Below, in pieces: positions 1,353-55,626 of a stretch of 64,000 nt of DNA. The DNA lies in NCBI GenBank assembly GCA_023244935.1, contig JAHFLJ010000001.1, forward strand, positions 13,327 to 77,326. Direction: 5' to 3'. Under the pieces are notes generated by a model. It was not told the origin of the DNA and did no database searches. It saw nothing but the letters and a program-made list of their open reading frames with translations. The position numbers and the translations under genes were made by a program. This DNA is from Candidatus Liptonbacteria bacterium. Its GTDB lineage: Bacteria > Patescibacteriota > Minisyncoccia > UBA6257 > 2-01-FULL-56-20. The stretch's first letter is position 1. Every line of letters starts with the position of its first letter.

Positions 1353-2990
1353 CTACTTGAACGTCCTCGCCACCTTCACATACCAATTCTTTAACTCTTT
1401 TGCCCTGTCCGAAAAATCTTCCAGATGCACCTCGTTAATCCCCTGAATATCTTTGCTGGTCAAGAATAAATACGGCTGACTATATAAAAATATTGCCGGC
1501 ACGTCCGCGCCAATCAGCCTCAGCAATTCGTTTTGGGCATTGTTCTTATTTTCAAAAGTTAAACTTCCACGAACATCTTCAATCAGTTTATCCACGGTTT
1601 TATTATTATAAATCGAAAGATTTAATCCCGGATAAAACCTTTCCGAAGAATGCCAGAAAGAGAATAAGTCTCCGGATGAATTTACCAAATTTCCAAAAAG
1701 AAGGGCTTGATAATTTCTATTTTTAATCGGCTCCGCCAAAATCTCTTCGGCGGTCGGGGTGGAAAGCCTCACCTCAACTCCAATACTCTTCCAGTCCTCG
1801 GCGATAAGTTCGGCTGTCTTTTTCAAAAAATCTTTTTGCGGAGAAAGGAGCTCAATCTGAAGTTTGACAATTTCTTTTTTATAAGTCTTTTGGCGAATTC
1901 CATCCTCGCCAATCTTCCATCCGGAGTTATCCAAAATCTCCTCGGCTTGGCCTTTGTCATATTTCTGTGAATCCGAGGACTCTCCCGACTCCGGCAGTGG
2001 CCCGGCCTGCTTCTTGCCGTATCCCAAAAGTGCGTCATTTATTATGCGATCTCGATTAACCGCCAAAGAAAGAGCTTCCCTGACCGCCTTATCTTCCAGT
2101 AATTCATTCTGACTTTGATTTAAAAATACTGCGTAATAGTTTGAAAGAGGGAAAGCATGCAAATCATATGTTCTTTTTATTTTGGAAATATCTTCCGGAG
2201 TTACCTGCGGAAGTCCGTCCGATAAACCGGAATTAAAACTATCAATCGCATCTTCTTGTTTTGTAAAAAAGTTCAACGTAACCCTCCCGATAAAAGCCGC
2301 CTTTCCGGAATAGAACTTATTGGGACGAAGTGAATAGCTGGAAATAAAACCATCGTCTCGCTTCTCCATCTCTTCAAAAACATAAGCCCCGGAACCGACC
2401 GGCTTCAGGTTATAATTTGCCAAGCGCCAGTTAGATGCCGGAGTATCCGCAAAAATGTATTTCGGAACCGGATACAAATTGGAAAGATTATCTTCAAAAA
2501 AACCGTATGGCGAAGAAAGATTAAACTGAACTTCCAATTCGCTCACTCGGCTTATCACCACCCCCTGCCAACTGCTAAAAAATGGGGATGAAGTTTGCGG
2601 ATCTTGAATTTTCTGCAATGTAAAAATGATATCGTCGCTAGTCAATTTTTCTCCACTAGACCAAAGCAAACCCTCTTTCAATCTGACCTTCCAAACCTTT
2701 CCGGTTTTATCGCTTTCAATTTTTTCCGCCAAATCGGAAACGGAAGCAAAAGTTAGCCTCGCGATAGTCTTATCCGTAAAGGTGTCCGCAAATAACGGAT
2801 TTATAAATGATGGCTGTCCGACTATTGCCTCCGAATATTCTCCTCCGCTTGCCGGAGCCGGACGAGTATTCTCTCTTACAAATATACCCAAAAGTAACAG
2901 GCCACTGACGGTTAGTGTTCCTAACGTAAGAATGAACGCCAATTTCTCCTTGGAAGAAAAGGCGGAAAATATTTTTTTAAGCCAACTCAT
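1353..2990 (-). CDS. Peptide ABC transporter substrate-binding protein (OppA/DppA, SBP family 5)
   Basis: N-terminal TM anchor; motifs WSSGEKLTSDDIIFT, PVGSGAY, VREALSLAVNR and DVPAIFLY. Confidence 0.88.
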   Translation of the reverse strand: MSWLKKIFSAFSSKEKLAFILTLGTLTVSGLLLLGIFVRENTRPAPASGGEYSEAIVGQPSFINPLFADTFTDKTIARLTFASVSDLAEKIESDKTGKVWKVRLKEGLLWSSGEKLTSDDIIFTLQKIQDPQTSSPFFSSWQGVVISRVSELEVQFNLSSPYGFFEDNLSNLYPVPKYIFADTPASNWRLANYNLKPVGSGAYVFEEMEKRDDGFISSYSLRPNKFYSGKAAFIGRVTLNFFTKQEDAIDSFNSGLSDGLPQVTPEDISKIKRTYDLHAFPLSNYYAVFLNQSQNELLEDKAVREALSLAVNRDRIINDALLGYGKKQAGPLPESGESSDSQKYDKGQAEEILDNSGWKIGEDGIRQKTYKKEIVKLQIELLSPQKDFLKKTAELIAEDWKSIGVEVRLSTPTAEEILAEPIKNRNYQALLFGNLVNSSGDLFSFWHSSERFYPGLNLSIYNNKTVDKLIEDVRGSLTFENKNNAQNELLRLIGADVPAIFLYSQPYLFLTSKDIQGINEVHLEDFSDRAKELKNWYVKVARTFK

Positions 2991-3004
2991 TAATTGCTAA
3001 TTTT

Positions 3005-3220
3005 TTAATTCAAAAAAAGCTTATAGACCGATAGACCGATAAATACCACCGACAAGACGATTGTGGATACAAAAAAGAATTTATCCATTCCTCGCCTGGC
3101 CTGATAAAATCCACCGGCTTCTCCGCCTCCAAAAAGGCCGGACATTCCGACATTCCTCTGCTGAAGCAATACCAGCGTTATTAGTAAAACTGAAACTATT
3201 ATTAATGCTATTTCAATCAT
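3005..3220 (-). CDS. secG: Preprotein translocase subunit SecG
   Basis: 71 aa with two TM helices; motif VLLQQR..GMSGLFGG...RRGMDK. Confidence 0.9.
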   Translation of the reverse strand: MIEIALIIVSVLLITLVLLQQRNVGMSGLFGGGEAGGFYQARRGMDKFFFVSTIVLSVVFIGLSVYKLFLN

Positions 3221-5339: not shown

Positions 5340-5612
5340 CGAGATAGACACCAAAAAGAGATAAATCAACGAAAAGCATCCAATCACGCGGAGAATAGTT
5401 CTTCTTGGCCGGGCTACGAAGTTTGCCGAGCATGGTCTCCGCCTGTCGGCGGAGTCGGCAAGCTGAGTGCCAGTTCAAAACCCGCTGGGGTTTTGAATGT
5501 AGGCCAAAAAGGACTATTCGGAGCGCCCTGGACGAGTATGCCAATACTCTGTATACTATCAAAGTCCATTCAAAAGTCTTAACACTTCAGTAGGAGCCCC
5601 CCGAAAGGGATT
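5340..5612 (+). ncRNA. Structured RNA upstream of rny, candidate 6S RNA
   Basis: Long stem GAATAGTTCTTCTTGGCC/GGCCAAAAAGGACTATTC with internal hairpins. Location upstream of rny matches known 6S synteny in several phyla. Boundaries are uncertain. Confidence 0.4.
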
Positions 5613-14471: not shown

Positions 14472-14599
14472 TTTTATTTATATATTGATCTCGATATATA
14501 AATATTACCACAAAGATGAGCGTTAGTAATCAGCACTAGCCGATAGCCCCACCACCGAGCGAATTAATTTATTATGGTATTGAAGTCTCCTCGCCCCCC

Positions 14600-14755
14600 C
14601 CCAAATCCTTTAATTTTGAGGGATTTCGCGCAGGCTATTTTAGCTTGGTTTTCCGTCGAAGGCGAAAATAAAATAGCCGAGGGACAGTTATAAATTTCCG
14701 CGGAAGAAATTCAACAACAACCCCTCAAAATTACAAAAGATGAGCCAAATTGACA
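14600..14755 (+). repeat. Promoter-abutting structured element, copy A (truncated copy at about 14547-14585)
   Basis: Outer stem TAATTTTGAGGG/CCCTCAAAATTA; inner stem GGCTATTTT/AAAATAGCC around AGCTTGG; ends GAGC-caaa-TTGACA. Confidence 0.8.
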
Positions 14756-27466: not shown

Positions 27467-27483
27467 TTTTATCTGGCACTAGT

Positions 27484-27675
27484 GAGATTATTAGTTTTTG
27501 AGAGGTGTCTGAAAAACCTTTTAGCTCGATCCCGCCAAGGGCGGGTAAAAGGTTTTGAAGACAGTTAGATTTTTGCTGTGACTGAGCAAGAGCGAAGAAA
27601 TACCTAAGGCCAGCAGGCCGAGGCAGAAAAAAATCGACACGACCCCTCAAAACTAATAATTGAGCGGGTTTGACT
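27484..27675 (+). repeat. Promoter-abutting structured element, copy B
   Basis: Outer stem ATTATTAGTTTT(T)GAG/CTCAAAACTAATAAT; inner stem AAAACCTTTT/AAAAGGTTTT; ends GAGC-gggt-TTGACT, then 17 nt, then TACCAT. Confidence 0.8.
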
Positions 27676-39895: not shown

Positions 39896-40261
39896 GGGGA
39901 TGATGGGCTTCGCCGAGAGACGGAGAGCTTCCCTGCGAGCCGAGCGCAATCTCGCAAATCTTGCACAAACTACTAACTGCCAACTTTAAAGTTGCAGCTC
40001 CTGCCTACGCCTACGCGTAACGCACGGGGATCTCCTGCCTGATTTATCACGCAAGAGGATCGGCTAGCCTTTGCCCTTTGGGTTAATACCGGTCTTATAT
40101 AAAAGGACTACTTCGCGAAGAGGCGACACGACTCTCGCGGATAAAAAATCGTGTCGTCCTGATCAAAAATCAGAACCGTTTCAAATTTATTTTTGAAACT
40201 ACGCTCGTAGACGGGCTGTCTTTGCCCCTTTCGCACGAGGGTTCAACTCCCTCCATCTCCA
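39896..40261 (+). ncRNA. ssrA: tmRNA
   Basis: Acceptor stem GGGGAUG/CAUCUCC-A with a G3.U pair; T-arm GAGGG-UUCAACU-CCCUC; tag frame 39979-40020 reads ANFKVAAPAYAYA*; directly downstream of smpB. Confidence 0.95.
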
Positions 40262-40302
40262 CAAACAAAAACACCGACCATGAAGGTTGGTGTTTTTGTT
40301 TG
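40262..40302. terminator. Terminator after tmRNA
   Basis: CAAACAAAAACACCGACC-atgaa-GGTTGGTGTTTTTGTTTG. Confidence 0.8.
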
Positions 40303-44153: not shown

Positions 44154-44273
44154 AAATTTAGTATAATCACAACCTCAGAATTAACAAATTGAGTCCCTTG
44201 GGCGAGGACTCCGACCCCAACTCCTCCCACCTGTCGAGCAAATTAATTTCTGAGATTCTAGGAATTTTTCCTA

Positions 44274-44433
44274 CCACCAGCGAGCCCCTCCAATTTTAAA
44301 GGGGTATAGCGGAATTATTTTCAGCTTGTTCTCCCGCTTTAGCGGGAGTGAAAATAATGAGCTATAGGTGCCTCTCCTGCTAGAAGGAGAGGACTCCGAC
44401 CCCTTAAAATTCGGAGGGCGAGCCGCTTTGACA
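44274..44433 (+). repeat. Promoter-abutting structured element, copy C (fragments at 44191-44260)
   Basis: Outer stem CCCTCCAATTTTAA(A)GGGG/CCCCTTAAAATT(C)GGAGGG; inner stem ATTATTTTC/GAAAATAAT; ends GAGC-cgct-TTGACA, then 17 nt, then TATGAT. Confidence 0.8.
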
Positions 44434-54509: not shown

Positions 54510-55011
54510 TTTTGAAAAAATAAATATTCTCGGAATCGACCCTGGCACAAAACGCGCCGGTTTCGGAGTTATATCCAAAGAAGGAAACATTTTGCGGCTC
54601 CTTGACGCGGGAATTTTTGCCGTCGGAAAATCCACTACAAATGAATCTCTCTTAATTATAAAAAATCAAATAGACCTTTTGATAAAAAAATATAACCCTT
54701 CTGTATTCGCGATAGAAAAACTTTTTTTCTCCACCAATCAAAAAACCGCGATGAGCGTCGCGGAGTCTCGCGGAGTTTGTATCCTCTCTGCTTTAGAAAA
54801 AAATATTCCTATTTTGGAGTTTTCCCCTAACGAAATCAAAAGCTCAATAGCCGGATTCGGAATGGCCGACAAAAAAGCTATTTTGAAAATGGTGCGACTG
54901 ATTCTAAAAGAACCAAATTTAAAAGTCATAGATGACGCCAGCGATGCACTTGCCATTGCAATCGTGGGAGCCCAAAACCTTAGACTTATAAAAACAGAGG
55001 GTGGCCACTAG
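54499..55011 (+). CDS. ruvC: Crossover junction endodeoxyribonuclease RuvC
   Basis: Motifs ILGIDPG, AIEKLFF, ESRG and DDASDALAIA. Confidence 0.95.
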   Translation: MPNNFEKINILGIDPGTKRAGFGVISKEGNILRLLDAGIFAVGKSTTNESLLIIKNQIDLLIKKYNPSVFAIEKLFFSTNQKTAMSVAESRGVCILSALEKNIPILEFSPNEIKSSIAGFGMADKKAILKMVRLILKEPNLKVIDDASDALAIAIVGAQNLRLIKTEGGH

Positions 55012-55051
55012 CCAATAGGCGACACCAAAGACTATTAGATTTGTATTTTCT

Positions 55052-55163
55052 CCCCAGCGAATCCTTTAATTTTGAGGGGTACCTCGTGGATTTCTTCTCT
55101 TTACCCCAAACGAGATTGTTGGTTTTGCGGGGTGTCTGAGAAACCTTTTAGCTTGGTCCCGCC
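55052..55163 (+). repeat. Two stacked truncated copies of the promoter-abutting element
   Basis: 55052-55087 matches the left end of copy A (AATCCTTTAATTTTGAGGG). 55104-55163 matches the left end of copy B (GAGATT...GGTGTCTGA.AAACCTTTTAGCT...CCCGCC). Confidence 0.8.
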
Positions 55164-55171
55164 TCTTTCCT

Positions 55172-55331
55172 CCCATCGACGAGCAAACTAATTTTCGGAG
55201 GTGTCGCGCAGTTCATTCCGGCTTGGTCCCCGCCGATTAGGCGGGGCGGAATGAACGAGCGGCAGCGCTAATTTCCGCAGGAGAAATTAGACAGCGACCT
55301 CCGGAAATTACGTTTGTGAGCGGCATTGACA
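55172..55331 (+). repeat. Promoter-abutting structured element, copy D
   Basis: Outer stem TAATTTTCGGAGGT/ACCTCCGGAAATTA; inner stem GTTCATTCC/GGAATGAAC; hairpin CCCCGCC/GGCGGGG; ends GAGC-ggca-TTGACA. Confidence 0.8.
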
Positions 55332-55377
55332 AGTTTCTTTAACTTTTTATACTGTATTCCATAAAAAAGATATAAAT

Positions 55378-55626
55378 ATGAAAGCAAAAAAAAATTATTC
55401 TTTCTCGGGAAACAGAGACGAGGACGCTATTCCCGAAGAGGAGCTTAAAGGAGACCCGTTTCTCTCGATGTCTCCCGCGTCTGAAGTCGACGAAGAAAAC
55501 GTTGATGACGATGACGGAATAACCGACGGACTACTCACCGAAGATGCCGAAGATGAAGAAAGCGAAGAATCTCTGGGGGCTAATGGTTTTACAATTGTAA
55601 CCGGAGAAAAAGACGACGAAATGTAA
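55378..55626 (+). CDS. Small, highly acidic protein
   Basis: 82 aa, D/E-rich, bracketed by a promoter and a terminator. Confidence 0.65.
   Translation: MKAKKNYSFSGNRDEDAIPEEELKGDPFLSMSPASEVDEENVDDDDGITDGLLTEDAEDEESEESLGANGFTIVTGEKDDEM

Follow-up and report, generated by a model that had tools for sequence, protein, structure and literature searches.

What kind of element recurs ahead of unrelated genes as the same branched fold, with stems whose sequences differ from copy to copy, and seems each time to stop just short of a promoter? The question arises from a locus at 55172 in the window, the whole stretch of 64,000 nucleotides analyzed here, which derives from the 712-kb genome of a Candidatus Liptonbacteria bacterium (G000 hereafter; G001 is a genome of the same genus, and L numbers denote loci). 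Our results reveal a family that is real, mobile, common in one order, and absent from Rfam and from the literature searched. Its members are likely a new type of selfish element that folds as single-stranded DNA (ssDNA) and is probably copied in enzymatically.

The original prediction described four full copies in the window, and their coordinates, P2 arms, linker, P4 hairpin, and GAGC-N4-TTGAC right end were all verified (Table 1). A fifth full copy, absent from that prediction, ends in GAGC-N4-TGGACG-17-TATACT, with its promoter boxes at 5529-5557. In the focal copy, an outer stem gives rise to two arms: P2/P3, which carries a 7-nt bulge on one side, and P4. Relative to shuffled sequences, this fold is strongly stable both as RNA (z of -6.3) and as DNA (z of -6.2), and three other window copies, folded as DNA, range from -2.5 to -8.0. 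The P4 loop of the copy at 27476 holds an unrelated hairpin at about 27578-27624. Other repeats also occur inside element loops, at 1262-1352 of the window and in many intergenic regions of G000: 7-nt units in inverted arrays, a palindrome of 20 nt, and a hairpin of 47 nt.

Table 1. Coordinates, in window positions, of the element copies and of the features associated with them.
Feature	Position	Strand	Remarks
Focal full copy	55172..55325	+	5' GAG at 55181-55183; terminal GAGC at 55318-55321, then 4-nt tail
Focal copy, outer stem P1	about 55184-55203 / 55297-55315	+	P2a and GNA/GA loop also present
Focal copy, P2	55211-55220 / 55247-55256	+	7-nt bulge GCTTGGT at 55221-55227
Focal copy, P3	55228-55246	+	
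Focal copy, P4	55268-55290	+	Loop CGCAGGA
Leader of focal copy	55164..55175	+	Pyrimidine-rich, at left junction; presumably untemplated
Older copy	55102..55163	+	Upstream of focal copy; different subtype, 5' half only, cut at P3 tip
Still older 5' fragment	55056..55085	+	19 nt identical to the 14600 subtype
Host promoter TTGACA-16-TATACT	55326..55353	+	Outside the element; serves gene 55378-55626; retained in G001 behind a different subtype
Full copy	14596..14749	+	Host -35 at 14750-14755; another subtype with the same 4-nt tail in G001
Full copy	27476..27669	+	Host -35 at 27670-27675; site empty in G001
Full copy	44274..44427	+	Host -35 at 44428-44433; upstream of IF-3 gene
Probable older fragments	44191..44262	+	Upstream of 44274 copy; seen by eye and in weak BLAST matches, not flagged in the HMM test
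Fifth full copy	5383..5528	+	Span also given as 5383-5541; same subtype at the same site in G001

The pairing of these stems is retained far beyond the window. A covariance model (R1), built on 20 copies, yielded 19 matches in G000 at E <= 0.1, a filter that missed the fifth window copy, and 17 matches in G001. Across 109 copies, 97.7% of the 2659 stem cells are paired in an alignment fitted to the model, versus at most 48.4% when partners are slid, and all 25 modelled pairs vary on both sides. The proposal that P2 differs between copies but stays paired was thus borne out, with P2 unbroken in 20 of 20 sequences and strong covariation throughout. Beside selection for compensatory changes, correction of one arm from the other may contribute, as 7 of the 12 changed pairs in five close pairs are double transitions. 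Conserved letters are GCTTGG in the bulge and CGCNRGA in the P4 loop, together with those of the GNA/GA loop and of the terminal GA/GA motif. Variants of 130 nt at L381, L384, and L385 retain P1, P2a, and P4 but no longer have P3 or the bulge. A second branched family, shorter and possibly a sibling, occurs at L010:3650-3950, L011:1200-1520, L012:1500-1850, and G000:C3:3475-3621; its outer stem stops at a TTGACA box, which the stem mirrors in some cases, and the family shares an AGCTCG-like bulge with the element.

Searched against Rfam, the window returned only tmRNA and tRNA matches, and the best match to the focal copy (E = 3.2) lay below the gathering threshold, so that the family, as had been suspected, has no Rfam counterpart. 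The tmRNA lies at 39896-40262 and a tRNA-Leu(CAG) at 1001-1085, with no element copy at that tRNA. The literature searched likewise held no description of the family; for a preprint on intergenic clustering (10.64898/2026.10.21.760802), this applies to the main text, and its supplements might list the family as a cluster.

Model R1 matched 77 of 141 related genomes and 55 of the 84 genomes within the taxonomic family. A second model, R2, recovered 10 of the 29 R1-negative genomes of that family, for a total of 65 of 84; some of those recovered have nothing but short variants, and presence labels are noisy (G009, for example, had no match in the R1 search and was positive in later ones). The number of model matches per genome ranged from 0 to 24. 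Across Patescibacteria the family is sparse, with matches in 4 of 150 genomes in a phylum-wide sample. A degenerate pattern scan proved too loose, as it found 121 loci, of which 80 were tested and 14 passed the model (none of three viral loci did so); those passing were labelled as Patescibacteria groups in 11 cases, as "bacterium" in two, and as "uncultured Gammaproteobacteria" in one.

Comparison of filled and empty alleles, which had been put forward as a check, revealed gain and loss at orthologous sites. Specifically, among the 17 hits in G001, six correspond to G000 sites that are empty or lack a copy, eight are filled in both genomes, and three could not be placed. The eight shared sites comprise four with a different or partly swapped subtype, three that are alike, and one remnant. 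At three sites (rpsT, 14600, and focal), the two genomes have different subtypes before the same promoter; between L006 and L033, the inner module alone has been swapped. The infC locus was not found in G001, and orientation relative to flanking genes is mixed. At the 27484 site, which is empty in G001 (L386), the -35 and -10 boxes are intact, and at L037 and L042, which are filled in G001, both boxes are present in G000 without the element. No target duplication was found in these three alignable filled/empty pairs, and host bases are replaced instead. Because the boxes exist in the empty alleles, the portable promoter module offered in the original prediction is excluded for the compared sites, and the promoter belongs to the host. 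The companion suggestion, an undescribed structured mobile element acting as RNA or ssDNA, accords with the filled and empty orthologous sites, the covariation, and the lack of an Rfam hit. Patescibacteria are regarded as streamlined and poor in mobile DNA; here, copies of one family number up to about 20 per genome and come and go within a genus. At 54894-55055 of the window, a second allele is present in runs X1, X3, X5, and X6, with about 20 changes and six gaps across the left junction and the ruvC end, against a nearly identical remainder, as in a short recombination patch.

The element had been claimed always to end 4 nt before a -35 box, and this generalization fails across the family. 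Of 109 right ends, 28 adjoin a -35/-10 pair, 28 a convergent stop codon, nine a DnaA-like box, seven the 3' end of a tRNA, and four the 3' end of a 23S gene, with 33 unclassified. Promoter targeting therefore describes 28 copies and not the 81 without a promoter at the right end. Right ends adjoin a defined feature in 76 of 109 cases, compared with 17 of 109 in a mirror test on the left, where the mirrored interval is shorter than the leader and contact is thus understated; shifted controls gave 2-6 promoters and 4-8 stops. The spacer to the -35 box is 2-5 nt in 26 of the 28 promoter contacts, with a mode of 4 (2 nt in five copies, 3 in six, 4 in 11, 5 in four, and 12 and 13 in one each), and spacers of 0-1 nt are absent among them. 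Convergent stops fall at -20 to +6 of the right end in 28 of 75 cases, 17 of them inside the element, versus 3 of 65 within 6 nt on the left, and the gap before a stop is 1-6 nt in 11 cases, with a mode of 3. Since a similar gap is also seen before stops, and stops lie inside the element, the 4-nt gap is most simply the element's own tail. Further, the contacts with stable RNAs and with stop codons are all at the 3' end of an opposite-strand transcript.

The 17 copies scored in G000 include eight that satisfy the -35/-10 rule (inspection by eye adds the fifth window copy), five at a convergent stop, one at a DnaA-like box, and three others. Contact with promoters is commoner in this genus (16 of 33 copies by rule), which accounts for the initial impression. 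The bare motif GAGC-N4-TTGAC occurs eight times in the genome, five of these being element ends, and the N3 version likewise occurs eight times. Loci at ruvC, secY, ychF, mraZ, rpsL, efp, tRNA-Pro, and the 23S end (labels from translations) recur across genera. Most right ends point to a functional edge (-35 box, stop codon, DnaA box, or stable-RNA end) and can aid the annotation of uncultured genomes; the element also rewrites gene C-termini and sits within rRNA insertions. Three of the unclassified copies (L054, L100, and L074) lie inside 16S or 23S genes, antisense to the rRNA; the L054 copy, in a 16S gene, is beside a group I intron, and a 23S gene with a copy also holds four tRNA genes. 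A role as a terminator was rejected by inspection, as the T-rich run precedes the stem on the folded strand.

The left junction behaves differently from the right. Leaders are poor in G (7-13% at positions -15 to -6 from the 5' motif versus 21% further out) and differ between copies with near-identical bodies. When each leader was compared with the reverse complement of its own right flank, the mean score was 12.06, against 10.87 +/- 0.22 in 300 permutations (maximum, 11.47; 88/104 hits), a signal that comes from about 10 loci, with kin not independent, and that later template switching could also produce; the direct-repeat control gave 11.57 against 11.07 +/- 0.24 (maximum, 11.81). The clearest of these fold-back cases are 10-16-nt copies of tRNA ends, which track the local sequence. 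At 12 of 109 loci, mostly from one genus, older fragments lie upstream on the same strand, 11 of the 12 being 5' parts, and none lie on the opposite strand. Both 5' fragments upstream of the focal copy have a pyrimidine-rich start of their own, and in G169, from another class, several of 12 copies have the same upstream pattern by eye. Because the leaders, the inverted flank copies, and the upstream 5' fragments would all fit it, we infer that the minus strand is extended leftwards, starting at the right junction.

Loop sequences bear on whether the fold forms in DNA or RNA. In 102 copies, the P3 hairpin is capped by a C-GNA-G triloop 29 times, by its reverse complement three times, and by a GNRA tetraloop twice. 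GNA mini-hairpins are described in PMC13037366 as much more stable in DNA than in RNA and as found in ssDNA origins and the N4 promoter. The triloops thus favor a DNA-type fold, as judged from loop type. With G-T cells outnumbering A-C cells in P2 (21:9) and P1 (46:28), the plus strand is favored as the folded strand. The share of G-U cells failed its control as a test for DNA (21 of 1020 cells in P2, 8 of 273 in tRNA acceptor stems).

Taken together, we consider it somewhat probable that this is a non-autonomous element of about 150 nt that folds as ssDNA and enters by copying that starts at its right end and deletes nearby DNA, its right flank eroding to the first essential feature. The plus strand would serve as the folded template, and a host 3' end at the right junction would prime minus-strand synthesis leftwards. 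The minus strand may add untemplated purines and sometimes fold back, copying its own flank, and the new strand would then be joined to the left side, with the 3' part of any resident copy cut off. Resident copies would draw in new insertions, and repeated replacement would erode the right flank until selection halted it at -35 boxes, stops, DnaA boxes, or stable-RNA ends, the 2-5-nt gap being the element's own tail. That ssDNA might enter by natural transformation is a guess. Erosion and targeting are nevertheless confounded, as gaps of 6-9 nt (L037 and L042) would force any tolerated insertion near the -35 box, and the 33 unclassified right ends of 109 fit less readily. More broadly, and as a speculation to which we give a minor share of credence, geneless mobile DNA without fixed ends, in which a branched ssDNA recognized by its shape is copied by a host polymerase or a novel one onto a primed chromosome end and overwrites its predecessors, could act as a ratchet of genome streamlining that pares intergenic DNA in ultra-small genomes back to the borders of promoters, stop codons, DnaA boxes, and stable RNAs.

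The closest competitor to erosion is active targeting, in which a break or resection stops at bound RNA polymerase, at DnaA, or at a transcript 3' end, and the 4-nt gap is a footprint. The missing 0-1-nt spacers with their mode of 4, the confinement of stable-RNA and stop contacts to the 3' ends of opposite-strand transcripts, and the 27484 replacement, in which about 75 nt were exchanged to within 2 nt of the -35 box, would all suit such a process. Nonetheless, a similar gap precedes stop codons, the 17 stops inside the element are expected under erosion, and three copies present in G001 at sites empty in G000 (L035, L038, and L041) adjoin no scored feature, so we regard targeting as unlikely. 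Still less support goes to a portable promoter that brings or builds its -35 box: although a -35-like hexamer follows each of the five window copies at a distance of 4 nt and nearly half of those in the genus contact a promoter, the boxes pre-exist in empty alleles and persist when the subtype changes, and most copies in the family have no promoter at their right end, which makes this reading barely credible.

A retro route, by which RNA of the element would be reverse transcribed in trans (for example, by the reverse transcriptase [RT] of a diversity-generating retroelement [DGR]) and inserted by target priming, would account for several features that are RT-like (10.1101/2022.03.14.484287): the right end is fixed, the left one varies and is accompanied by deletion, and both untemplated bases and snap-back occur. 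G000 carries a DGR, DGR RTs are common in these genomes, and the tandem GA loops are also compatible with RNA. However, the loops are of DNA type, RT shows no clear co-occurrence with the element, G001, G004, and G065 hold 9-17 copies and no RT match, and no RT recurs among the proteins flanking the 109 loci; we consider this route improbable. Equally improbable is a domesticated host element that serves as a boundary, for priming, or for protein binding, stays at fixed loci, and is homogenized by gene conversion rather than transposed. The same loci recur across genera, the inner module was exchanged between L006 and L033, and the bulge and P4 loop are strongly conserved, as one would expect of a host function, whereas empty sites in a same-genus genome, the spread of 0-24 matches per genome, the truncated arrays, and the overwriting of gene ends argue against it.

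No partner enzyme was found among the RT, Y1, IS110, GIY-YIG, AEP, and DUF559 candidates tested. The RT, HUH, or recombinase genes suspected from the outset were searched for, and none was associated with the element: RT occurs in 39 of the 65 element-bearing genomes and in 9 of the 19 others (Fisher p 0.43), and Y1 in 17 of 65 and 2 of 19 (p 0.22), in both cases with related genomes non-independent and labels noisy, while IS110 (PF02371), AEP primase, and DUF559 were each found in 0 of 5 genomes searched, and DinB in four of five. PF01797 (RAYT/Y1) is absent from G000 and G001. Small GIY-YIG genes are present in 84 of 85 genomes and so do not discriminate; G100, with three copies, has no GIY-YIG match at E 1e-6. 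RT and Y1 are not among the recurring flanking proteins of the 109 loci (largest 45 clusters), which we take to be housekeeping or shadow frames, by names drawn from translations. Two inverted pairs of copies enclose no enzyme. Subtraction of the element-free G078 from the ORFs of G000 and G169 left 42 of 802, including DprA and no clear mobilizer. DprA, present in 79 of 85 genomes, gives no evidence of partnership, since G001, G047, G067, and G087 carry copies without a match to it. Neither the element nor DprA is present in the two genomes of genus g20, G078 and G020, and G078 is also without matches to several further genes of G000, small GIY-YIG and four-helix-bundle-like ORFs among them. 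The junctions, with their per-copy leaders, fold-back copies, and one-sided overwriting, match no tested transposase class, and the partner could be a new DNA-writing activity.

Several known systems resemble the element in part. Correia, ERIC, and Rickettsia RPE repeats are of similar size, non-coding, bounded by terminal inverted arms, and located near promoters or gene ends, as is the element. Unlike those of such miniature inverted-repeat elements (MITEs), its arms have no fixed sequence and differ between copies, host bases are replaced without target duplication at L037, L042, and 27484, and the searches made found no cognate transposase. An IS200/IS605 derivative was rejected, since a fixed 4-5-nt target without host loss is not seen; right neighbors vary and host bases are replaced. 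R2 elements insert by target priming with an RT. The element resembles R2 and the G2L4 RT in that the priming end is fixed, the far end varies and suffers deletion, and both untemplated bases and snap-back copies occur, and differs in lacking a linked RT or clear RT co-occurrence and in its DNA-type loops. An IS110/IS1111 bridge RNA was rejected on the absence of PF02371 from the five genomes and on loops that are conserved rather than variable. A retron or DGR RNA was rejected as well: copies are dispersed, no RT is among recurring flankers, and the DGR of G000 has its own template (TR) and variable repeat (VR). That DGR, at L013:1871-4461 (G000:C3), is complete, with an RT, an avd-like ORF, a 211-aa target gene, and a TR (2946-3079) and VR (2363-2496) that are 83% identical.

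REP/REPIN sequences, as presented in PMC3116915, are likewise small, non-autonomous, multicopy extragenic hairpins with predicted ssDNA structure that occur in clusters or tandem arrays. By comparison with that account, the element has no conserved REP doublet, its stems covary freely, its fold is branched, its truncated arrays are one-sided, each copy has its own leader, and no Y1 gene is in G000 or G001 or linked to it. Ssn nucleases and their NTS hairpin repeats, which are recognized in ssDNA form in cells capable of natural transformation (PMC11893778), invite comparison with the small GIY-YIG genes that abound here. There, however, NTS is 28 nt and flanks ssnA, whereas one scored locus (L008) adjoins a small GIY-YIG gene, at a tRNA end. 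Like REPINs, NTS repeats, and MITEs, the element would be a small hairpin mobilized in trans, and it differs in having no conserved arms, duplication, or linked RAYT or Ssn; it is of the miniature non-autonomous kind, and its junctions may point to a new insertion chemistry. Membership in the Ssn/NTS system was rejected: one of the five small GIY-YIG genes of G000, all at tRNA ends, is beside a copy, and G100 has copies and no GIY-YIG match. These five Ssn-like genes (L115-L119; contigs C12, C14, C23, and C26) stand at tRNAs with partial tRNA duplications and inserted hairpins.
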